Source: a virus
Taxonomy: Duplodnaviria; Heunggongvirae; Uroviricota; Caudoviricetes
DNA length: 37,380 nucleotides
IMG/VR virus record: IMGVR_UViG_2718218398_000011
Strand: one strand, 5' to 3'
Shown: positions 10,145 to 32,298 of the stretch, in pieces
Numbering within the stretch: the stretch's first letter is position 1
Layout: every line of letters begins with the position of its first letter
Made by a program: the position numbers and the translations under genes
Notes under the pieces: generated by a model
The model's input: the letters and a program-made list of their open reading frames with translations, nothing else
Databases searched by the model: none
What the model was told of the DNA's origin: nothing

Positions 10145-10717
10145 TCAGGGGGATTCATTGATCTTATTTGCCGGAAATTTTCTATAAATGGTAGAAACGC
10201 CTACATCAAAAATCAGTGCAATACGCTGTCTTGATTCTCCGGCCTCGAGTAAACGCCCAATCTGTGCCCACTGTTCGGTGGTCAACTTAGGACGGCGTCC
10301 ACCTACTCTGCCTTTGGCACGAGCTGCAGCCAGCCCTGCCCTGGTACGTTCAACTATCAGTTCGCGTTCCATTTCAGCCAGGGCACCCATGACATGAAAA
10401 AAGAAACGGCCCATTGGGGTACTGGTATCAATACTGTCAGTCAGGCTTCTGAAATTCACACCACGCTGGCGCAACTCTTCTATCAGCGTAACAAGATGCC
10501 GCATACTGCGCCCCAACCTGTCCAGCTTCCAGACAACCAGCGTGTCTCCTGCCGATAGTGTCCTGAGTAGTTTTTTCAGCCCCGGTCTGTCGGACTTAGT
10601 GCCACTGATTTTGTCCTCAAAAATCCGCTCACATCCCGCGCAGTTCAGTGCATTACGTTGCAAATCGGTGTTCTGGTCATTTGTTGACACGCGTACATAG
10701 CCAATAAGCATGATCAT
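10145..10717 (-). CDS. serine DNA invertase (Hin/Gin/Pin/Cin family)
   Basis: N-terminal GYVRVSTNDQ serine-recombinase motif and C-terminal HTH; 190 aa; adjacent to an inverted-repeat crossover site. Confidence 0.9.
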   Translation of the reverse strand: MIMLIGYVRVSTNDQNTDLQRNALNCAGCERIFEDKISGTKSDRPGLKKLLRTLSAGDTLVVWKLDRLGRSMRHLVTLIEELRQRGVNFRSLTDSIDTSTPMGRFFFHVMGALAEMERELIVERTRAGLAAARAKGRVGGRRPKLTTEQWAQIGRLLEAGESRQRIALIFDVGVSTIYRKFPANKINESP

Positions 10718-10766: not shown

Positions 10767-10794
10767 TTTTCTTAAACGTTGGTTTGGGAGAAGC
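10767..10794. repeat. inversion site, left (gix/hix-like)
   Basis: TTCTTAAACG-TT-GGTTTGGGAGAA; the inner half and core are the exact inverse of the site at 12623..12650. Confidence 0.6.
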
Positions 10795-12130: not shown

Positions 12131-13686
12131 TATGCAGCTCTCACAATATAATTAAATGACGTATTACGTGGTCGTACTGATATCCATGCACTATAAAAAC
12201 CGTCTTCTGCTGTTCTCTGCGTTCCCGTAATGGAGTTATCAGACGAAGCTGGAACATAGTTACTGCTGTCGCCAGCTTTAGAATTAGCAGGTATCCCGCT
12301 TGTTTGTACTTTATCGGCGGAAGCAAATGCTATCCCCACCTTGACAGAGGTTGTTGTATCAACCCCGTAATAATCCTGTAACGCTGTACGAATAAAAGTT
12401 GCATCCTGACCACTGAGTAGTGATCGTCCACTGTCTACACCGCGTCCATCATCCCAGCCACGAATAAACTCACCGCGTAAATCAGGCAATTTATTTGTCG
12501 GGTAAGCCTTTGCCAGTTCCGGGTATTCTTCAGCAGAAAAAGCTGCACCATTGCATTTCAACCAGCCTGTCGGTGGTGTAGCTGAAGGCCACGGAACAGG
12601 CACACCAACCGGTAATGCTGAACCTTCTCCCAAACCAAGGTATGCGAGAAGACCAGCAACATCCTTTCCACTCAAATTAGTCAGCGTATTGTCCAGCGGT
12701 TGTTTACCTGCCAGTGCATTAAGCATTGTCGTGGCAAAGTTCGGGTCATTCCCCAGCGCCGCCGCCAGTTCGTTCAGTGTATCCAGTGCCGCAGGTGCAG
12801 AACCCACCATTGCCGCAATCGCCGATTTCACAAATGCCGTGGTGGCAATCTGTGTATTGTTGACCGACTGTGCCGCAGTCGGTGCGGTTGGCGTTCCGGT
12901 GAGTGCCGGACTCGACAGCGGCGCTTTCAGTGCCAGCGCATTGTTAATGGTGGTACTGAATTTCGGATCATTGTTAATGGCTACGGCTATTTCTTTCAGC
13001 GTGTCCAGCGTGGCTGGCGCATCATTAATAAGAGCCGTCAGTGCCGCCTGAACAAATGCGGTGGTCGCAACCTGCGTGGTGTTATTCCCCGTCGCTGGCG
13101 TTGGCGCTTTGGGTGTCCCGGTAAACGTAGGACTTTCTTTGGCTGCATACTGTGAATGCGGGTCCGGTGCGGCAAGATGTTTTGCCATCTGATCATCCGC
13201 GTACACCTTCAGCTCCAGTGCCTTGTCATCCACATACTTGCGGGTTGCCAGCACTACAGCAGGGTCGATTTTCAGGGTGATATTGTCCGTGCTGCTGGTA
13301 ATCAGCACCATGCGCACGGTCTGGGTACGCCCGCTGCCTTCAGCCAGTTGCGGCTTATAGCTTTCCGGGCAGTTGCCCACGGCAATCAATGCCCCTGACT
13401 CATCAAACAGGCCCACTTCACGTATCCACCAACCGCCCTCGTTTTCAGGGATCACCTGTTCAGCAATAATCTGGCTGCTGTTCTGTGGGTCGATATAGAG
13501 CATATTCAGCGCAGCCCGACGTTTCTCATTTACCAGTGCACTCTGCTTTGCGTCCGGCGTCGGCAATGTTCCGCCACCATCGCCCACCGCCATATGGGTA
13601 ATTTTTAGCGGCACACCGAGCGCGGCGGCGCTGGCAAGTTTCGCCGCGCCAATATCCGTCAGCAGGGTATAAAATTTTGTGCTCAT
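12130..13686 (-). CDS. H: tail fibre protein H (constant N-terminus plus currently fused variable C-terminus)
   Basis: 518 aa, P2 gpH-like N-terminus with repeat-rich shaft; the inversion site lies inside the codons for LGLGEG. Confidence 0.9.
   Translation of the reverse strand: MSTKFYTLLTDIGAAKLASAAALGVPLKITHMAVGDGGGTLPTPDAKQSALVNEKRRAALNMLYIDPQNSSQIIAEQVIPENEGGWWIREVGLFDESGALIAVGNCPESYKPQLAEGSGRTQTVRMVLITSSTDNITLKIDPAVVLATRKYVDDKALELKVYADDQMAKHLAAPDPHSQYAAKESPTFTGTPKAPTPATGNNTTQVATTAFVQAALTALINDAPATLDTLKEIAVAINNDPKFSTTINNALALKAPLSSPALTGTPTAPTAAQSVNNTQIATTAFVKSAIAAMVGSAPAALDTLNELAAALGNDPNFATTMLNALAGKQPLDNTLTNLSGKDVAGLLAYLGLGEGSALPVGVPVPWPSATPPTGWLKCNGAAFSAEEYPELAKAYPTNKLPDLRGEFIRGWDDGRGVDSGRSLLSGQDATFIRTALQDYYGVDTTTSVKVGIAFASADKVQTSGIPANSKAGDSSNYVPASSDNSITGTQRTAEDGFYSAWISVRPRNTSFNYIVRAA
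12623..12650. repeat. inversion site, right (gix/hix-like), inside gene H
   Basis: TTCTCCCAAACC-AA-GGTATGCGAGAA; the inner half is the reverse complement of the left site's inner half. Confidence 0.6.
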
Positions 13687-22128: not shown

Positions 22129-23895
22129 ATGAACACCACACTGACACCCGCAGATCTCGATCCCCGTCGGCAGGCCATGCTGCTGTACTTTCAGGGATAC
22201 CGCGTCGCCCGCATTGCTGAAATGCTGGGCGAGAAAGTTGCAACCGTTCACAGCTGGAAAAAACGCGACAAGTGGGGTGACTATGGGCCGCTGGATCAGA
22301 TGCAGCTCACCACCGCCGCACGCTACTGCCAGCTCATTATGAAGGAGCACAAAGAAGGGAAAGATTTCAAAGAGATTGACCTGCTGGCGCGCCAGTCTGA
22401 GCGCCACGCGCGGATCGGCAAGTTTAACAATGGCGGCAACGAAGCTGACTTAAACCCTAACGTCGCCAACCGCAACAAAGGCCCGCGCCGTCAGCCGGAA
22501 AAGAATGTCTTCACCGATGAACAGATTGAGAAGCTGGAAGAAATCTTCCATTCCTCCATGTTCAACTACCAGCGCCACTGGTGGGAAGCCGGAAAAACCA
22601 ACCGCATCCGCAACCTGCTGAAGTCACGCCAGATCGGCGCGACCTTTTACTTTGCCCGTGAAGCCCTGATTGACGCCCTGCTTACCGGACGTAACCAGAT
22701 TTTCCTTTCCGCCAGTAAGGCACAGGCCCACGTCTTTAAGCAGTACATCATCGACTTCGCCAAAGAAGTGGATGTGGAACTGAAAGGCGATCCGATGGTG
22801 CTTCCTAACGGGGCCACGCTTTACTTCCTCGGCACCAATGCCCGCACGGCCCAGAGTTATCACGGCAACCTGTATCTGGATGAATATTTCTGGATACCGA
22901 AATTTCAGGAGCTACGCAAAGTGGCTTCCGGTATGGCTATTCACAAGAAATGGCGGCAGACCTATTTTTCCACACCATCCAGCCTGACCCACAGTGCTTA
23001 TCCGTTCTGGTCCGGTGCGCTGTTCAACCGTGGACGCAACAAAGCCGACAAGGTGGACATTGATCTGTCCCACAGCAATCTGGCCCCCGGCCTGCTGTGC
23101 GCTGACGGGCAATACCGCCAGATAGTCACCGTGGAAGATGCGGTGCGCGGTGGCTGTAACCTGTTCGACCTTGACCAGTTGCGCATGGAATACAGCCCGG
23201 ACGAATACCAGAACCTGCTGATGTGCGAGTTTGTGGACGATCTCGCGTCCGTGTTCCCGCTCAGCGAACTACAGGCGTGCATGGTGGACAGCTGGGAAGT
23301 CTGGACCGACTTTCATGCACTGGCGCTGCGCCCGTTTGGCTGGCGCGAAGTGTGGATCGGTTATGACCCGGCAAAAGGTACGCAGAACGGCGACAGCGCC
23401 GGATGCGTGGTGGTGGCACCGCCAGCCGTGCCGGGCGGTAAGTTCCGCATTCTTGAGCGTCACCAGTGGCGCGGGATGGACTTCCGCGCCCAGGCTGACG
23501 CCATCAAAAAACTGACTGAACAGTACAACGTGACATACATCGGTATCGACTCAACCGGCGTCGGTCACGGGGTTTACGAGAACGTGAAAGCGTTTTTTCC
23601 TGCCGTCCGGGAGTTTGTCTACAACCCCAACGTTAAAAATGCCCTGGTACTCAAGGCCTACGACATTATCAGTCACCGCCGTCTGGAGTTTGACGCCGGA
23701 CACACCGACATAGCGCAGTCATTTATGGCAATCCGTCGCGCCACCACCGCCAGCGGCAACCGCCCGACCTATGAAGCCAGCCGCAGCGAAGAAGCCAGCC
23801 ATGCCGATCTGGCGTGGGCAACAATGCACGCACTGTTTAACGAACCGCTGCAGGGCGAGTCCGCCAATACCAGCAATATTGTGGAGATTTTTTGA
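22129..23895 (+). CDS. P: terminase ATPase (large) subunit P
   Basis: 588 aa, P2 gpP-like. Confidence 0.9.
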   Translation: MNTTLTPADLDPRRQAMLLYFQGYRVARIAEMLGEKVATVHSWKKRDKWGDYGPLDQMQLTTAARYCQLIMKEHKEGKDFKEIDLLARQSERHARIGKFNNGGNEADLNPNVANRNKGPRRQPEKNVFTDEQIEKLEEIFHSSMFNYQRHWWEAGKTNRIRNLLKSRQIGATFYFAREALIDALLTGRNQIFLSASKAQAHVFKQYIIDFAKEVDVELKGDPMVLPNGATLYFLGTNARTAQSYHGNLYLDEYFWIPKFQELRKVASGMAIHKKWRQTYFSTPSSLTHSAYPFWSGALFNRGRNKADKVDIDLSHSNLAPGLLCADGQYRQIVTVEDAVRGGCNLFDLDQLRMEYSPDEYQNLLMCEFVDDLASVFPLSELQACMVDSWEVWTDFHALALRPFGWREVWIGYDPAKGTQNGDSAGCVVVAPPAVPGGKFRILERHQWRGMDFRAQADAIKKLTEQYNVTYIGIDSTGVGHGVYENVKAFFPAVREFVYNPNVKNALVLKAYDIISHRRLEFDAGHTDIAQSFMAIRRATTASGNRPTYEASRSEEASHADLAWATMHALFNEPLQGESANTSNIVEIF

Positions 23896-24923
23896 TGGGA
23901 AAGAGTAAGAAGAACCGCGCTGTGTCGACGAACCAGATTCAGCACAAAAGCCAGACTTCAGCCGAAGCATTCAGCTTTGGCGATCCCGTTCCTGTTCTGG
24001 ACCGCCGCGAACTGCTGGACTATGTAGAATGCGTACAGACAGATCGCTGGTATGAGCCGCCAGTGAGTTTTGACGGACTGGCGCGAACCTTCCGCGCTGC
24101 CGTGCATCACAGTTCACCAATTGCGGTGAAATGCAACATTCTGACCAGTACCTACATCCCTCACCCGCTTCTCAGCCAGCAGGCTTTTTCACGTTTTGTG
24201 CAGGACTATCTGGTATTTGGTAACGCTTACCTGGAGAAACGCACGAACCGGTTCGGTGAAGTTATCGCCCTTGAGCCTGCTCTGGCAAAATACACCCGAC
24301 GTGGGTTAGACCTGGATACCTACTGGTTTGTGCAATACGGTATGACAACCCAGCCGTATCAGTTCACGAAAGGCAGCATTTTTCATCTGATGGAGCCGGA
24401 CATCAACCAGGAGATCTACGGCCTGCCCGGCTATCTTTCTGCCATTCCATCCGCCCTGCTCAACGAGTCCGCCACGCTGTTCCGCCGTAAGTATTACATC
24501 AACGGCAGCCATGCAGGCTTCATCATGTACATGACCGACGCCGCGCAGAATCAGGAGGATGTGAACAACCTCCGCAACGCGATGAAAAGTGCCAAAGGTC
24601 CAGGCAACTTCCGCAACCTGTTTATGTACTCGCCTAACGGCAAAAAAGACGGGCTTCAGATCATCCCATTGTCAGAAGTCGCGGCGAAGGATGAATTTCT
24701 TAACATCAAGAACGTAAGTCGGGATGACATGATGGCGGCGCATCGTGTGCCGCCGCAGATGATGGGGATAATGCCAAACAATGTTGGGGGGTTTGGGGAT
24801 ATAGAAAAAGCCAGTTGCGTTTTTGTGCGAAATGAGTTAACTCCTTTACAAAAAAGACTTGTAGAAATTAATATTTGGCTAAAGAAAAAAATAATAGCCT
24901 TCAAAGATTATTCATTGAATTAG
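23892..24923 (+). CDS. Q: portal protein Q
   Basis: 343 aa, P2 gpQ-like; the last ~30 codons are AT-rich. Confidence 0.9.
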   Translation: MMGKSKKNRAVSTNQIQHKSQTSAEAFSFGDPVPVLDRRELLDYVECVQTDRWYEPPVSFDGLARTFRAAVHHSSPIAVKCNILTSTYIPHPLLSQQAFSRFVQDYLVFGNAYLEKRTNRFGEVIALEPALAKYTRRGLDLDTYWFVQYGMTTQPYQFTKGSIFHLMEPDINQEIYGLPGYLSAIPSALLNESATLFRRKYYINGSHAGFIMYMTDAAQNQEDVNNLRNAMKSAKGPGNFRNLFMYSPNGKKDGLQIIPLSEVAAKDEFLNIKNVSRDDMMAAHRVPPQMMGIMPNNVGGFGDIEKASCVFVRNELTPLQKRLVEINIWLKKKIIAFKDYSLN

Positions 24924-24934
24924 ATAAAATGTGT

Positions 24935-24952
24935 GGGGGATGAAAATCCCCC
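24935..24952. terminator. hairpin between convergent Q and the KAP NTPase gene
   Basis: gggggat-gaaa-atccccc, a 7-bp G/C stem with a GAAA loop in a 35-bp intergenic gap. Confidence 0.4.
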
Positions 24953-24957
24953 CCAAA

Positions 24958-26610
24958 TTACAAATACCGTCTAACACGTATTTTATTAATGCTCGACTCA
25001 TTTCCAATTCTTATCAAAGCATTTCTCGCTTTTTCTCCGATGCGTTTCATTCTTTCTGAACCATTGCTATACCCACCAAACTTAAGAGCAGTAGCTATTA
25101 TTGAATCACCACCATCAAGAATGACTTTTTTAAATAAATCATAGTAGTCATCCTCTGAGGCAGCATCCAATATTTCCTCGTGCCTATCAGACCAACCATT
25201 CTGACTTGATAATTTTATTAGAACATCCTTTATAGAACCATCCAGATTTAAAGTAGTAGAATAATCTTGGATTTTTGACTTTAACTCAGCATCTTTTATA
25301 GGATGAACATTCATGTAAATAGATTGAACATATTCCTTAAGAGCATCATTGCCGTAATTAATAAATTTACTTATTAATTCACTTGCTTTAATATTTTCAC
25401 CTAAATCTCTATACAGTCCGACAACACTATCCAAGTCACTTGGAGTTACATACTCTATCCCACCAACCACCGCTTGATATAGATTATCAATAACCTGATT
25501 TCGGTTATCTTCAAATGAATTATAGAAAAGCTTCCATGCTTCAAACAGTGAACCTCGCTTACTATCACGGATAAGTTCATCATTCCTTAGACTTACTTGC
25601 CTTTGGAAATTGTTCATATCAATATATCCATGCCTTACCATGTCTATAAGGACTTCATCAAGTTCGTTTGTTTTTTTATAATCATATATAAGCAAAGTAT
25701 TAAGCCATTTTTTTTCTTTTCCATCCTCTTTTTCATCACGCATATAGATATTTCTCATATTTCTAATATACTCCAATGATGGTACATCTCCATCTGGAGT
25801 AAATGCGTAATGACTCCAACAATACAAAGTTAAGGAGTGTGCGACTTCATTTGCAATTTTTTCAAAATTAACGTTAATGCCAGGTAACAAGGCTAGCAAA
25901 AACCGCTCTATTTTTTTCAGTATCCTAATATTCTTAATACCCAGGGAAATGGAGTATTTGCTTAATAATTTATGAACATCAGAATTATTTTTATATGCTA
26001 TAACTGCACATTCTTCTGGAGTAGGATTATAGGTAATCTCTCTATCAATAACCTTTTCTTTATAAGTGGAGTAGTCATCCATACCACTTGTCCCGTTATT
26101 AAGTAAAAGAACCACCTTACAATTTTTTTGTTCTTTCAATAAAGAAACCAACCCTAAGACATCTTTCACTTCTAAATTTTTACCACGTCTTTCTAAGTCA
26201 TCTATGACTACAATAACATTAGTAATTGACATAAATGACATTGACTCAAGTGTCGTAGTGAAATTTTTCAAAAAAGGTGTATCTTTTAACACACGAGCGG
26301 TCTTTCTAGTGCAGGATTCAAGAAGCCCCTTTGCATTTTGTGTTGCTGTTTTTAAATTAGGTTTGTTTCCAATGAAATCTTTCGTAATTGTATTTTCAAA
26401 GATGGAGTATTTTAATGCGTCCAATGAATTAACACCAAAAAGAGAGACGTAACTATATCTATTAAATGCAATCTTATTTTTATTTTCCTTTAAGAAAGCA
26501 TTCCAAGTATAGGTTTTCCCAATCCCCCACTCACCCTGAATAGCCATTACCTCAGGTTCTGCAGATGAAATAAAGTCTGACAACTGTTCTTTAATATAGT
26601 CTAATGACAT
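24958..26610 (-). CDS. KAP-family P-loop NTPase (cargo; candidate anti-phage protein)
   Basis: Walker A GEWGIGKT and Walker B VVIDDLERR in KAP-type arrangement; start placed at MSLDYIKEQL, which has GGAGA six nt upstream (track ORF starts at 26640); strongly AT-rich. Confidence 0.7.
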   Translation of the reverse strand: MSLDYIKEQLSDFISSAEPEVMAIQGEWGIGKTYTWNAFLKENKNKIAFNRYSYVSLFGVNSLDALKYSIFENTITKDFIGNKPNLKTATQNAKGLLESCTRKTARVLKDTPFLKNFTTTLESMSFMSITNVIVVIDDLERRGKNLEVKDVLGLVSLLKEQKNCKVVLLLNNGTSGMDDYSTYKEKVIDREITYNPTPEECAVIAYKNNSDVHKLLSKYSISLGIKNIRILKKIERFLLALLPGINVNFEKIANEVAHSLTLYCWSHYAFTPDGDVPSLEYIRNMRNIYMRDEKEDGKEKKWLNTLLIYDYKKTNELDEVLIDMVRHGYIDMNNFQRQVSLRNDELIRDSKRGSLFEAWKLFYNSFEDNRNQVIDNLYQAVVGGIEYVTPSDLDSVVGLYRDLGENIKASELISKFINYGNDALKEYVQSIYMNVHPIKDAELKSKIQDYSTTLNLDGSIKDVLIKLSSQNGWSDRHEEILDAASEDDYYDLFKKVILDGGDSIIATALKFGGYSNGSERMKRIGEKARNALIRIGNESSINKIRVRRYL

Positions 26611-26670
26611 GTACATTCTCCGAGATAGATAGTCATCCATATTATAACCCGAGTACTATCAAAGTAATAA

Positions 26671-26696
26671 GCGCGCGCTCGTATCCCCGCCACGCC
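26671..26696 (-). other. candidate cos site (cohesive-end region)
   Basis: Minus strand reads GGCGTGGCGGGGATACGAG CGCGCGC, resembling the P2/186 cohesive end as I remember it (GGCG[A/T]GGCGGGGAAAGCA.. followed by GCGCGC); a G-rich block in an AT-rich island at the expected map position. Confidence 0.4.
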
Positions 26697-27039
26697 TGCC
26701 CGCTTTATGTAGTGGTTTTCATGCACCTGCACGACATAAGCAAAAGCACGCCAGTTCTGGCTGGCCTCAGCAAAAACGATCCTCTAACGATCATGCGATC
26801 TCATGCGTCATAGTCATGCACAGCCAAGGGAAGCGTAAATCCGTATCTGAATGACCGCTGAAAAGCTAATCATACGGGTTTACAAAGATGAAAGTCCGCT
26901 GTGAGCGAAAAGCGGATATTCCCATTGTTTTATCTTGATCTAGTAAAAACAATACCCCCTTTACAAACAAAAATAATGAGTTACTATTTTCAGCTCCTTT
27001 TAACCCAAAGGTTTATAATTAAAAAGGAATGGCATACCG

Positions 27040-27693
27040 ATGAGTAAATACAAACTTTTCGCACAGCTATCAAGATATTCACTTGAAGCGCAGATTGATG
27101 ATTTCGAAAAATATATCCTAGGAGCAGGCGGCCAAAACAGAGTTGACTTAGCGGAATTAAAAAAAGCATATGAAGATGAAAAAAAGAATGCTCCTGACGA
27201 TTATATTAATTACTTAGAAGACTATTATTCAGAGCAATATGATTTCTTAGTTAACATACAACCAAATATTTTTAATAAATCTGCTTTGGTATCTTTATAC
27301 TCATGCTTAGAGCACAACCTAAACGACTATTGCAATATATGTCAAAGGATTGTAAACACCAATATATCAGTAACCGATTTTAATGGTGATGGCATCCACA
27401 AAGCAAAAAGATATTTAACAAAATTAATGGATATAAACTTTGGCCTGTCACAAGAGTGGCAATTCATGACAGAGTTTAACAAAGTAAGGAATTGCATAGT
27501 TCATGCTAATGGAGACATTAAAAAAATGAGCACAGCTGTAGCCTTAAAAAATATCATTGATAAAACACCTACTCTTTCATTAAACAATGAAAATAATATA
27601 ATAATCTCCTTAAATTATTTAAAAGATACTATCACAAAAATTAGAAAACTCTTTCAATGGTTATATACACATCTGGATCAATCATCGAAATGA
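27040..27693 (+). CDS. hypothetical protein with HEPN-like RNxxxH motif (cargo; candidate abortive-infection RNase)
   Basis: 217 aa; EFNKVRNCIVHANG at residues about 146-158 fits the Rx4-6H HEPN signature; AAGGAA ribosome-binding site; AT-rich. Confidence 0.5.
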   Translation: MSKYKLFAQLSRYSLEAQIDDFEKYILGAGGQNRVDLAELKKAYEDEKKNAPDDYINYLEDYYSEQYDFLVNIQPNIFNKSALVSLYSCLEHNLNDYCNICQRIVNTNISVTDFNGDGIHKAKRYLTKLMDINFGLSQEWQFMTEFNKVRNCIVHANGDIKKMSTAVALKNIIDKTPTLSLNNENNIIISLNYLKDTITKIRKLFQWLYTHLDQSSK

Positions 27694-27793
27694 ATACGAT
27701 AACATCTCAGTTTGTTATTGGTCTATTTTTGAAAACAGCTATCGATGATATTAGTCTGTTCTTCGTCAATTAATATGCAATCCATTCATGACA

Positions 27794-27815
27794 CAGGGCT
27801 GCTGTTACAGCCCTG
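27794..27815. terminator. hairpin between the convergent HEPN-like and Abi_C-like genes
   Basis: cagggctg-ctgtta-cagccctg, a perfect 8-bp stem. Confidence 0.35.
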
Positions 27816-27942
27816 ACAACCTTAGACTTCAATCGATTCAGAGATCTCTAACGCATCATCACCCGTTGAACTCACAGCGATAAGTAGACGCTGGCGGCAA
27901 CACAGAAGTGTAGCGGGAATTTGAACCACATAATTTGGTTTG

Positions 27943-28809
27943 TTAGATGGCTTTGCTTCGATATTCAATTTCTAAAATCGCCTTTGTCATTGCCGCAATA
28001 GTTATAGCTTCTACCATAGTCAATTCAGGCTTGTTCAAGCTTCCGTGTCCAGCAGTAGGTAATTTGTTGCGTAAATCATAAATATCTTTAACAGCATCAA
28101 TAAGATTCTTAGGTAATTTTGACATTTTTTCGAACTGTTTAAAAAAACCACCCAATGACTCATTTGCCACATTCGGGTTTTGAGTGATTTCCTTAGCCAT
28201 AGTTTCTAAAATATTAGAGGCTGCGTGCAGTGCACCTGCCGGATCATTATTATCCAAGCAATTATTCATTCTATCTATTTGCTGAACGATATTTGGGTGC
28301 AATCTTTTTAAGTAATCACTAGCCAATTCTTCATTAAAATTTTTGACACTTTCAAAAACATCGCAATCTAAATAAAATTTAGGATTGACTGACATCCATG
28401 TATATTTCCAATCATTTTCTAAATTATCTTTTTCCGCAATACGCCTGCCAGTGTCCTGATCTATCTCATCAACATATTTACACATATAATCGGCGTAGTA
28501 GTGTAAATATCTAAATGATATTTCTGGGCAAAAATTACTAACTGATGCAAGGCCGCCATATTCTTTTGTAGTAACTGTAGGGACTTCTTCATCACATAAA
28601 GATGAGAAAGTGGTTCTTTCCCAAAATTCGCCCAACTCTTTTTCTTTCCTAGTTGCCATACCAGCTATCACATTGATGCTTGAGAGCAAAACTACACTCT
28701 GATAGTATCGAGGACATCTGTATGAACTAGCATATGGGCATATTGATGATGCTTTACGATTAATACGCTCTTTTTCCCACCAATTTTTATCAGGAATAAT
28801 TCTTTGCAT
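27943..28809 (-). CDS. hypothetical protein with Abi_C-like C-terminal domain (cargo; candidate abortive-infection protein)
   Basis: 288 aa; the C-terminal ~100 aa (ALHAASNILETMAKEI ... DLRNKLPTAGHGS ... ITIAAMTKAILE) resemble the Abi_C/HEPN-type domain as I recall it; AT-rich. Confidence 0.45.
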   Translation of the reverse strand: MQRIIPDKNWWEKERINRKASSICPYASSYRCPRYYQSVVLLSSINVIAGMATRKEKELGEFWERTTFSSLCDEEVPTVTTKEYGGLASVSNFCPEISFRYLHYYADYMCKYVDEIDQDTGRRIAEKDNLENDWKYTWMSVNPKFYLDCDVFESVKNFNEELASDYLKRLHPNIVQQIDRMNNCLDNNDPAGALHAASNILETMAKEITQNPNVANESLGGFFKQFEKMSKLPKNLIDAVKDIYDLRNKLPTAGHGSLNKPELTMVEAITIAAMTKAILEIEYRSKAI

Positions 28810-29297
28810 AATTTAGCTACTATCTCACGAGTGAATGAATGTTTAGCCTTCTGCACAGTTTATCAGTTCCGGCATGCCTACTGCTACCCCACTGATTCAA
28901 CTTCAAGTTATGAGTTAAAGCGATTCGGTTTCGCTAGATGACACACTAGTGTTAATTTATGGATAAAAATTTATCACTTAAAATTAACTAATGCCTGTTG
29001 CGACCAAAAGTGTGCTGGAATATTATTTTCGTCTGACCTATTATCAAGCTAATTATCCAAATTAGAGTTACTCTCATTCATCAGCAACAAATAAATACAC
29101 CTGTTCACTTTCTCAAAGTGTTCCTGTTTTATTTTTAAAGCAAACAACGCCGCCTATTCGTCCGAATGTACAACAAACATCAGGTTCTGACACAAAGTGG
29201 ACGATCACTTATCAAAATGACCGCCCACCTTACACCTCATTTCACTCGTTGCCCAAACTCCCCCCAACAGGATAAATCCTCTTGGGGGCAACGTTTC

Positions 29298-29883: not shown

Positions 29884-32298
29884 TTAATACAGGTTCCGCC
29901 ACTTATCATCTTCCCACAAACGCTGGTTCCGATAGAAGATACGCAAGCCTGCTCCTGACGGAATACTGCCGCCGCGAAGGAGTAAATCGACCTCTTTCTC
30001 GCTACCATCAAATCCTCTGGACTTCAGCTCATAGACGAGCTGCAGTCGCTGATGGTATGTAATTCGCTGTTTGTAGTCTTTACGCCGTTTCGGTTTAACC
30101 AGGCGTAACCTTGCTGCCAGGTCCCGGCGCTCTTTTTTGCTCATACTGTGCAGGTAATCGTGCAACTCCTTGTCATCCATGCGGGTAATGTCCGTTCTGG
30201 TATCCCCATCAGCTGATTTGTCTTTCCCTTGTTGGTACAAATTTTCAGCAAGGGGACAGTTATTGCCACGAGTCCAAGGGGCGCAAGCGCCCTGGTCGGC
30301 TGCCGCCTCCTGAACGTCAACGGCTTTACGGACCATTTTCCACTTCACTGCATGAGTGCAGATCTTGCCCTCTGCAATGGGTGACCAGATGCCATAAATA
30401 CGAATACCGTGATCGCCATAGGCGGTCGGCTCTTCGTTGATTTCATAAGCGGTTCTGATGAGGTGATATTTACGGGGAACCAGTACGCCGCCCTGCTTCA
30501 TGATGTAGGTGGCAAAGCAACCAGCATCAGCTGCAGCCAGAATGGCATCAAGGCGCGGGTTATCCAGTACCGGCGCACCTGCTTTTTTGTCACCCTGTTG
30601 CCTTGCCGCCTGACCAGCCAGCAATCGCAGTTCACGGTAAGCCTGACGCCCCGGAATGCCAAAGAAGCGGAATTGCTGAACACGATGCAGAGACGCCCAG
30701 GCATTAACGTATTCAGCGTTATCACGCAGAGATTTACCCGTTTCCTTGCTGATCTCGCCAGCCAGACCACGCCCGTCAATGTTCTTACTGATGTATTTCG
30801 CGATGTAGCTTGTTGGTGTACCTTTGCGCGGGTTTATCAGCTCAGACTTAAAGCGTGGTCCTGTGTTATTACCCAGCTCCTCGCGGTCTTCACGAATGGC
30901 AAACTTACGCAACAAAGCAGTAATGGCGCGGCGATCTTTTTTGCGCATAAAACACAACAGGTGCCAGTGAACTGTACCGTCATGATGCGGCTCAGCCACC
31001 CGCACGCCATACCAGCGCAATCCGGCTTTGTACATCGCCTTACGAAATGCAGCAAACATGCCGACCAGATAATCACTGCTTTGTCTTACCGTCGCATTTG
31101 TCCAGGTCGGGTTGGGCCTGCCGTTATTTAGCGTGGAATGGAAACGTGACGGACAGGTGATGGTGTAGAAAACGGCGCAGTCACCGCGCATTTCCGCGAT
31201 AAGCTCCAGACCTTTAACACATGCCATCATCTCATTGCGGCGATGCGCCGGGTTGCTACTACTGGCGTTTACCACGTCCTCCATATCCAGCGTGTCGCCG
31301 TCTTCGTTCACCAGTTCATGAGAACGGAAAAACTCCAGCGACTTACGGCGCTGCTCACGTTTATGCATCACGGCTTCATAGCTGACATAGGGAGATGCTT
31401 TTTTGCTGACCAGGCAAACAGCACGCAACTGCTCTTCCCGCCATTCGCAACGCATCTTCCATAATTTCCGATACCACCAGTCGGCGCACAACATACGCGC
31501 CAGCGAACCCGGAATGAGTTCATAGGGTACGGGTTTACGGCGGTTTCTTTTCCGGCGGAGTTGCTCAAACGCAGGAGGGATGACATCCAGACGCAGGGTT
31601 TCCGCCGCCACCCTTTCCCATGTCTTGCGGATTTCTTCTGGCTTAACGTCATCGGTGGCATACAAATCACCACAAGCTGCATCAAGGCACATGCTCATAT
31701 GTGCGGCAACAAGGGTAGACAGGCGCTTCACCTGATCCTGACTCATTTCAGGCAAGATCAGCAGGCCGTCCAGCCCTTCATGGCTTGCCATAAAACGAAA
31801 AGATGCAGATAGCTGGCTGTCGCGTACATGCTCTAGTCGTTCCAGACATGGTTTAATCGTCTCACGCAAATAGCGGGAATAAGCCTTTGGCCTGCCCAGG
31901 CTGCTGAAGTATTCAATACGTTGCATCAGCGGCTTGCTGATATGGGAAGGCTGGGCGTTAACGTCCGCCAGTATGACCATGTCCGGATTAAAACGCTGCT
32001 GCTCATGCACCAGCTTTGCCCGGCTAATGAGCTTATCCTGCTCCATTTCGCGCTGGACAGGATCACGGGATTCATTAAAGAAATAACGCTCCCAGACCTG
32101 ATCACTCAGTGCCTCGCGGCGCAGTTGTTCCTGCTTGTTATCGGCAGCGTACAGAGTGATCAGGTTTGAAAGCGCAGAAACCGGCGCAACTTCCGCCGGG
32201 TCCAGATAAGGGTTAATCGCCTTTTTCGGGCTGTTCCATGAGAATGCTGCGGCGGCCTCGTTAAAGCCGCTGCAGTTGTTCATATCAGCATGTCTCAT
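29884..32298 (-). CDS. A: replication initiation protein A (rolling-circle HUH endonuclease)
   Basis: 804 aa; HUH motif [11 protein letters not shown] and catalytic-Tyr motif [12 protein letters not shown], as in P2 gpA. Confidence 0.9.

Follow-up and report, generated by a model that had tools for sequence, protein, structure and literature searches.

A stand-alone KAP NTPase gene as exchangeable cargo between cos and the portal gene of a P2/186-type prophage, with a probable role in defence

Phages P2 and 186 have no gene between the cohesive-end site cos and the portal gene Q. In the viral record IMGVR_UViG_2718218398_000011 this space holds an AT-rich gene on the strand opposite to Q, for a protein with the motifs of a KAP-family nucleoside triphosphatase (NTPase). 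The whole stretch of 37,380 nt, called the window below, was analysed. The KAP gene is a self-contained accessory cassette (putative promoter, coding sequence and terminator) of a P2/186-type prophage, in which it occupies a variable slot between cos and Q. It probably encodes a prophage-expressed, single-protein defence against phages or competing elements, in which an immune sensor would be coupled to an NTP switch. The gene is real, its product is a stand-alone KAP protein, it is cargo of a slot with two definable boundaries, and its relatives are found on many kinds of mobile element.

The open reading frame (ORF) extends from 24958 to 26640 on the reverse strand, and the true start is the ATG at 26610, which gives a protein of 550 aa. 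The ATG at 26640 (560 aa) was rejected as start: all homologues begin with MSL at 26610, as does the RefSeq annotation, and GGAG is found 7 nt upstream. The RefSeq protein WP_001726290 is 100% identical and is annotated from the 26610 ATG. The allele with about 80% nucleotide identity, WP_023147874 (614 aa; L013:4499-6343, L157:4999-6843), is annotated with a 64-aa N-terminal extension. Its start codon is probably wrong, because the extension reads through the promoter region and the cos core, and homologues start with MSLEF. The gene is under purifying selection. In comparisons with alleles of 77% and 74% identity its ratio of nonsynonymous to synonymous substitution (dN/dS) is 0.13 and 0.17, with a synonymous divergence (dS) of about 0.9; values for the N- and C-terminal halves are similar.

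An initial annotation of the DNA had assigned the protein to the KAP family from a Walker A motif GEWGIGKT and a Walker B motif VVIDDLERR. Both motifs are present in the translation (aa 26-33, nt 26512-26535, and aa 133-141, nt 26188-26214), match the patterns GxxxxGK[ST] and hhhhDDL[DE]R, and are invariant in 52 diverse members of the family. The assignment itself was upheld by Pfam PF07693 (KAP_NTPase), which scores 34.9 bits against a curated cut-off of 20 (E=1.3e-8) and aligns aa 18-210 with profile positions 6-231 of 293. This score is weak beside the 148.5 bits of PifA, the founding member, with which Walker B and the motif that follows it can be aligned.

The window begins with chromosomal DNA of E. 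coli type (homologues of ybjM and ybjL, 288-2619), and continues in the ORF map with a complete P2/186-type prophage, whose identity is backed by Pfam matches to integrase, CI, GPA, Dam and portal. The junction between ybjL and ogr recurs in E. coli genomes. The gene order around the cassette is P, Q, KAP, cos, two cargo genes, a DinI-like gene and A (Table 1), and the G+C content drops from about 0.55 to 0.32-0.37 across 25000-29000. The stop codon of Q ends at 24923 and that of the KAP gene begins at 24958; the gap of 34 nt contains a hairpin terminator for the KAP strand. A consensus scan upstream of the KAP gene gave no full -35/-10 promoter of the sigma-70 type. The candidate -10 box TATAAT at 26641-26646, which was read in the sequence, is kept in two other KAP-bearing loci and is missing from a locus with different cargo, and the cassette appears to have its own promoter. 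Expression in the lysogen is suggested by the orientation opposite to the late operon, by the cassette's own terminator and by the conserved, perfect -10 box.

A search for the exact P2 cos 19-mer with up to three mismatches gave no match; the site is a 186-type variant, found by reading and alignment. A cos core of about 150 nt is common to 80 P2-like phage records. The records of P2 and 186 have only 167-176 nt between cos and the portal stop, containing the terminator tQ/tW; in the window the distance is 1,754 nt and is filled by the KAP gene. Five loci with three different cargoes were aligned, namely the window, a locus with the 100% allele, one with the 80% (nucleotide) allele, a Salmonella prophage with a 44% allele, and an E. 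coli prophage with unrelated cargo, a gene of the LPO_1073/Vpar_1526 family. The five are near-identical from AGCGCGCGC (26670) through cos and about 150 nt further, and diverge completely on the Q side of 26670, so that the break, at 26669/26670, is 8 nt away from the cohesive end. In Q, the final codons vary with the type of cargo. As homology breaks at both places, the slot is bounded by cos and by the 3' end of Q. Terminal or transposon-like repeats flanking the cassette were not found, and exchange is accordingly by recombination in the flanks. The KAP gene is thus AT-rich, swappable cargo, antiparallel to the late operon and with its own terminator. What the initial annotation had said of the locus, that an AT-rich gene is inserted between Q and cos, in a tight junction with Q and at a place where P2 has no gene, agrees with these boundaries, the 34-nt gap and the G+C contents in Table 1.

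The content of the slot is variable. In the prophage of E. coli PEC422 (L002:3828-4940) it holds a gene of the LPO_1073/Vpar_1526 family and a small hypothetical gene, and no KAP gene; the slot therefore takes unrelated cargo. The two cargo genes on the far side of cos in the window occur without the KAP gene in 8 listed E. coli genomes (H1-H8), and the KAP gene is found with at least five other sets of neighbours across cos. The three-gene combination of the window is present in no complete E. coli genome and in one IMG/VR contig (L123). Cargo on the two sides of cos varies independently.

Placement was surveyed in 52 viral contigs of IMG/VR with a KAP relative. A P2-type portal gene ends 32-61 nt past the KAP stop in 37 of the 52, the cos core lies 58-139 nt ahead of the KAP start in 37, and both adjoin the KAP gene in 34. 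The arrangement cos-KAP-portal spans alleles of 100, 97, 77, 52, 44, 41 and 36% identity, next to portals that are 64-100% identical. Since the alleles diverge while the portals stay similar, the slot is home to one family with a deep series of alleles. In two contigs, cos and the KAP gene are separated by an additional 1-2 kb. In L129 and L141 no gene fills the gap between cos and portal, which is also the case in P2; their KAP gene, a 45% allele, is found across cos and has its 3' end on the cos side. Either side of cos is accordingly open to the family.

The family is large. Among 1.84 billion cluster representatives searched, 3,846 are relatives at E≤0.001 and at least 1,046 at E≤1e-30, and the listed relatives at the latter threshold are nearly all 545-600 aa long and align end to end. 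By profile match the family corresponds to PHROG 4740, which has no assigned function (full length, E=7.2e-145, aa 1-550 on profile positions 1-624 of 627). In a set with one genome per species 223 relatives were confirmed, of which the best 80 were kept. These 80 have 30-44% identity and come from Gamma-, Alpha-, Beta- and Deltaproteobacteria, Cyanobacteria, Bacteroidota, Leptospira, Myxococcota and several lineages of the candidate phyla radiation. Such a patchy spread across phyla is typical of horizontally moving genes. Three of the 80 loci have a P2 context and 77 lie elsewhere. Lambdoid prophages have some of the relatives, next to a pentapeptide-repeat gene and to one whose product weakly matches the AbiJ N-terminal domain, and others are found in integrase islands. 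Full-length relatives with 28% identity are carried by non-mobilizable plasmids of about 110 kb in Klebsiella and E. coli, and further plasmid relatives are known from Legionella, Rhizobium and Nostoc. A 109-kb Escherichia phage record and Burkholderia phages have relatives at 26-27% identity. No close relative is present in 50,697 phage records, though 80 of these have the cos core.

Nothing in these contexts accompanies the gene regularly. No conserved neighbour or partner gene was found in the 80 species-level loci, where flanking ORFs cluster in at most 6 of the 80, in mixed positions, and Pfam and PADLOC scans of the 139 nearest neighbours gave no recurrent family. Among the 139 are housekeeping genes, four integrases and scattered defence-type matches (mad3, SngC, AriA, HEC-01A, PsyrT, Dsr1, DpdF and several PDC candidates). 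The description of the protein as a stand-alone NTPase is thereby borne out. Nor is it a housekeeping NTPase: the KAP protein and its two neighbours have no NCBIfam match, the spread over phyla is patchy, and the relatives sit on prophages, plasmids and islands.

Among complete E. coli genomes the gene occurs in 127 of 5,426, always as a single chromosomal copy, with at least 95% nucleotide identity in 12 carriers and about 80% in 112. On E. coli chromosomes at L001, L013/L157 and L156, three different deletions have removed most late genes of P2-like prophages, and all three remnants retain a segment that starts in what is left of the portal gene, includes the intact KAP gene and reaches the replication gene. 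One such remnant may be present beside ybjL in most of the 112 carriers of the 80% allele. The prophage of E. coli GCA_019754995.1, which has the 100% allele, contains a second, different KAP_NTPase gene of 443 aa beside the CI repressor gene (L003:1-171).

The AlphaFold2 (AF2) model, with a mean predicted local distance difference test (pLDDT) value of 83.8, has a Rossmann-like P-loop core, a helical lid up to about aa 245, and only helices beyond. The spacer between Walker A and Walker B (aa 94-119) is of low confidence in the model. The initial annotation had left about 400 aa after the NTPase motifs unassigned; with the AAA+-like core and lid reaching to about aa 245, this number has to be lowered to nearer 300. 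These C-terminal 300 aa or so form a generic alpha-solenoid, in keeping with the alpha-helical (superhelical) C-terminal extension of the KAP family. The region is a probable sensor or interaction module. Invariant positions across the 52 diverse members are G26, W28, G29, G31, K32, T33, Y52, Y54, S56, F58, G59, D137, D138, R141, G153, K186, D189, N227 and R229, and G328 is the sole one past the NTPase. The C-terminal half diverges faster than the N-terminal half and retains mainly aromatic core residues together with D318, N542 and R545. No transmembrane helix was detected (highest 19-residue Kyte-Doolittle mean 1.28, no window above 1.6). Transmembrane helices inserted in the NTPase domain are typical of many KAP proteins, such as Tmn, and are not universal in the family, as PifA is also without any. 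The best structural matches are the DNA-loading AAA+ ATPases ORC, Cdc6, TnsC and MuB, and cover only the generic NTPase core; a profile search of the PDB by sequence gave nothing meaningful. No nuclease, pore, NADase or protease domain was recognised. Almost all invariant residues lie in the NTPase, and the architecture suggests an NTPase switch with a helical sensor or scaffold and without a recognisable catalytic effector.

Table 1. Coordinates of the KAP cassette, its protein domains and the surrounding features in the window
Feature	Position	Strand	Remarks
Terminase gene P	22129-23895	+	G+C 0.56
Portal gene Q	23892-24923	+	Pfam Phage_portal; G+C 0.50; convergent with the KAP gene; left-hand boundary of the slot
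Hairpin terminator	24934-24955	-	Terminator scan; 7-bp stem with 5 GC pairs, T-rich tail
KAP NTPase gene	24958-26610	-	550 aa and stop codon; G+C 0.327
C-terminal all-alpha domain	24961-25875 (aa 246-550)	-	Tail motif ES..N..R (E538, S539, N542, R545) conserved
NTPase core and helical lid	25876-26610 (aa 1-245)	-	Walker A and B, sensor-like N171, NIR motif (N227, R229)
Candidate -10 box	26641-26646	-	Perfect TATAAT, read in the sequence between cos and ATG
cos core, conserved	26670-26820		Right-hand boundary of the cargo slot
cos cohesive end, 19 nt	26678-26696	-	GGCGTGGCGGGGATACGAG; first 13 nt identical to the annotated cos of phage 186
AT-rich cargo gene, 217 aa	27040-27693	+	Far side of cos
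AT-rich cargo gene, 288 aa	27943-28809	-	Far side of cos
DinI-like gene			Between the 288-aa cargo gene and gene A
Replication gene A	29884-32298	-	G+C 0.53

The place of the gene is itself informative. The region between gpA and gpQ of P2-like phages is a hotspot of anti-phage systems including old and tin, several of them validated, with 1,650 gene arrangements in 18,150 loci (PMC9122126). Table S5 of the same paper lists WP_001726290 and WP_023147874 as 'KAP_NTPase' (PMC9122126). The KAP gene belongs to the cargo of this hotspot (Rousset et al. 2022), as it lies between gpQ and gpA, beside cos, and is variable. The novelty is lowered, since the hotspot had been published and the protein catalogued there, both of which the initial annotation missed. 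The KAP gene has the hotspot and the logic of a prophage-expressed accessory gene near cos in common with old and tin of P2, whose proteins are unrelated to it. The genes old and tin map to the right end of P2, across cos from Q; the KAP gene is usually found between cos and Q, where P2 and 186 have no gene.

KAP NTPases are an established and mechanistically opaque class of phage-defence proteins. Four of four KAP NTPases with fused C-terminal regions of unknown kind gave phage protection in a 2026 paper (PMC13552941); in EF_KAP, the sole case dissected, the protection was non-abortive and both Walker B and the C-terminal region were required (PMC13552941). 'Reve', a single-gene KAP system from the P4 hotspot, was protective in another 2026 paper (PMC13586616). 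EF_KAP, the three metagenomic proteins and Reve resemble the protein described here in being single KAP P-loop proteins with a C-terminal region of unknown fold; they are mobile-element-borne and phage-protective, and Reve is likened by description only. Transmembrane helices, of which one lies within the NTPase domain, are found in EF_KAP and not in the present protein, and Firmicutes or metagenomes are the source of proteins of the EF_KAP type. The F-plasmid protein PifA, responsible for T7 exclusion, is likewise soluble and mobile-element-borne and passes KAP_NTPase; neither protein has a hydrophobic 19-residue window. Both have a DDL[DE]R Walker B (VVMDDLDRL in PifA) and a downstream motif Y..K[IV]I...P.PE. 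PifA differs in its 741 aa and its far higher score on the KAP profile, in an unrelated C-terminal region, and in its position behind the repressor gene pifC, while the KAP gene has no accompanying regulator. A close relationship with PifA was rejected, as profile comparison aligns 68 columns only, around Walker B, with a probability of 32%.

Roles in phage defence have been demonstrated for Tmn and for QatA of QatABCD, which are also NTPases of the KAP class. The P-loop domain of Tmn has an insertion of two transmembrane helices and QatA works together with QatBCD, whereas the KAP protein has neither such helices nor a conserved partner. Membership in either system was rejected for these reasons and because the only PADLOC matches of the protein are PDC-S49 and PDC-S20. 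The match to PDC-S49 (E=2.2e-25, 87 bits) aligns only profile positions 9-443 of 624, with homology common over the NTPase and part of the helical region; the alignment being partial, the KAP family is regarded as a sister of PDC-S49 and not as a member. All 52 diverse members match PDC-S49 (best E=1.9e-30). A STAND assignment (NACHT/NB-ARC, as in Avs and bNACHT) was also rejected, with NB-ARC at 14.9 bits against a cut-off of 23.5 and a better fit to the KAP profile. The protein has no room for an N-terminal effector, as Walker A begins at residue 26, and its resemblance to Apaf-1 and CED-4 is confined to the generic core.

A defence role, which we hold to be probable, is favoured by the gpA-gpQ location, the link to PDC-S49, the protective KAP relatives, the behaviour as cargo, the distribution on mobile elements, the selection, and the KAP gene left intact in three independently deleted prophage remnants. 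In such a system the C-terminal alpha-solenoid would bind a component of an invading phage. This binding would switch the N-terminal KAP NTPase (K32, D137/D138, R229) to an NTP-bound or hydrolysing, probably oligomeric state, and the switched state would block the infection. The output would probably be NTPase-driven binding or remodelling, or recruitment of a host factor, because neither an effector domain nor a partner gene was recognised. Several points weigh on the other side. The killing or blocking step is left unexplained by the domain content, and a partner that could supply it is lacking from the species-level loci. Defence-type genes are the neighbours in only some genomes outside the P2 context, and many neighbours are housekeeping genes. 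The KAP gene may have been kept in the prophage remnants simply through its linkage to the early region, which was kept as well. PDC-S49 is matched over part of its profile only, KAP is not in the table of tested systems of the hotspot paper (PMC9122126), and a literature search returned no experiment on this family and no paper for 'PDC-S49'. The tight tie to cos and portal in 34 of 52 viral loci could point to a role related to packaging.

This last point leads to the main rival, in which the protein would work phage-autonomously at the packaging site, as an ATPase similar to ORC, Cdc6 or TnsC that acts on cos DNA, terminase or portal, either tuning the packaging of its own phage or barring P4-type satellites from the cos and terminase of their helper. 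It has the structural matches to ORC, Cdc6, TnsC and MuB on its side, together with the constant placement (in the 34 loci, for alleles of 36-100% identity, the distance is 58-93 nt to the cos core and 32-61 nt to the portal stop), and a satellite to act on, as P4 has the same cos as P2 (PMC9122126). The fold matches are, however, limited to the generic NTPase core, and two viral loci have the KAP gene across cos. The gene cannot be needed for packaging, since P2, 186 and most P2-like phages have none in the slot; there is no close relative in the phage records, even with 80 cos cores among them, and 77 of the 80 species-level loci lie outside a P2 context. An AT-rich cargo gene oriented against the late genes is also not what would be expected of a packaging function, and we consider this role quite unlikely. 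A related possibility joins defence with the packaging site: an ATPase-only protein would protect without killing, by NTP-driven binding or remodelling of the replication or packaging machinery of a competitor, possibly a P4-type satellite or a related P2-like phage with the same cos. We give it a low probability.

The benefit could also be other than defence, if the protein stabilised prophages or plasmids as an addiction-like NTPase or altered the physiology of the host. Partition systems, which are not defence systems, occupy about a quarter of P2 hotspots (PMC9122126), full-length relatives at 28% identity are carried by the Klebsiella/E. coli plasmids of about 110 kb and by Legionella and Rhizobium plasmids, and the gene is kept in defective prophages. 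Against such a benefit, no ParB-like, centromere or antitoxin partner was found in any context, the Walker motifs are of KAP and not of ParA type, and the KAP proteins with a phenotype that were found in the literature search (PifA, Tmn, EF_KAP and Reve) are all anti-phage. It is an unlikely explanation for the present gene. That the ORF is decaying or spurious, within AT-rich junk DNA, might be read from its low G+C content and from relatives that are merely 'hypothetical' in several databases. This is hardly credible and is already refuted by the selection and conservation data, namely a dN/dS of 0.13-0.17 with dS near 0.9, the 1,046 or more cluster representatives at E≤1e-30, nearly all of full length (545-600 aa), a confident AF2 model and invariant catalytic residues.

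If the gene is defensive, as we think probable, it would represent a compact KAP immune ATPase without transmembrane helices, partner gene or recognisable effector domain, and a clean system in which to study how KAP NTPases stop phages, a question left open by the two recent experimental papers. Its compactness, solubility and lack of a partner, together with its very wide spread, make the family a sensible choice for experiments. It is large and present on prophages, plasmids and islands of many phyla, the candidate phyla radiation included, yet it is without a function in annotation. Its presence in 127 of 5,426 complete E. coli genomes bears on the prediction of phage susceptibility. The slot between cos and Q is separate from the tin/old side, and hotspot surveys that pool the region from gpA to gpQ merge two slots that are swapped independently.

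Two further parts of the prophage are of some interest. Of the cargo proteins on the far side of cos, the one with 217 aa has an Rx4H motif (RNCIVH) and a PADLOC match to 'RTasHEPN' (E=1e-5), and the one with 288 aa has a sub-threshold match to Abi_C (E=1.7e-3). Since the two genes are paired without KAP in the eight listed genomes, they resemble independent defence candidates of the HEPN/Abi type. Elsewhere in the window, a gene of the resolvase/invertase family (10145-10717, reverse strand) adjoins a 1.8-kb segment between inverted repeats of 27 nt (10767-10793 and 12624-12650). The segment contains ORFs for C-terminal parts of tail fibres and for tail-fibre assembly on both strands, and from its sequence resembles the Mu G / P1 C kind of invertible host-range switch, here within a P2-like prophage.

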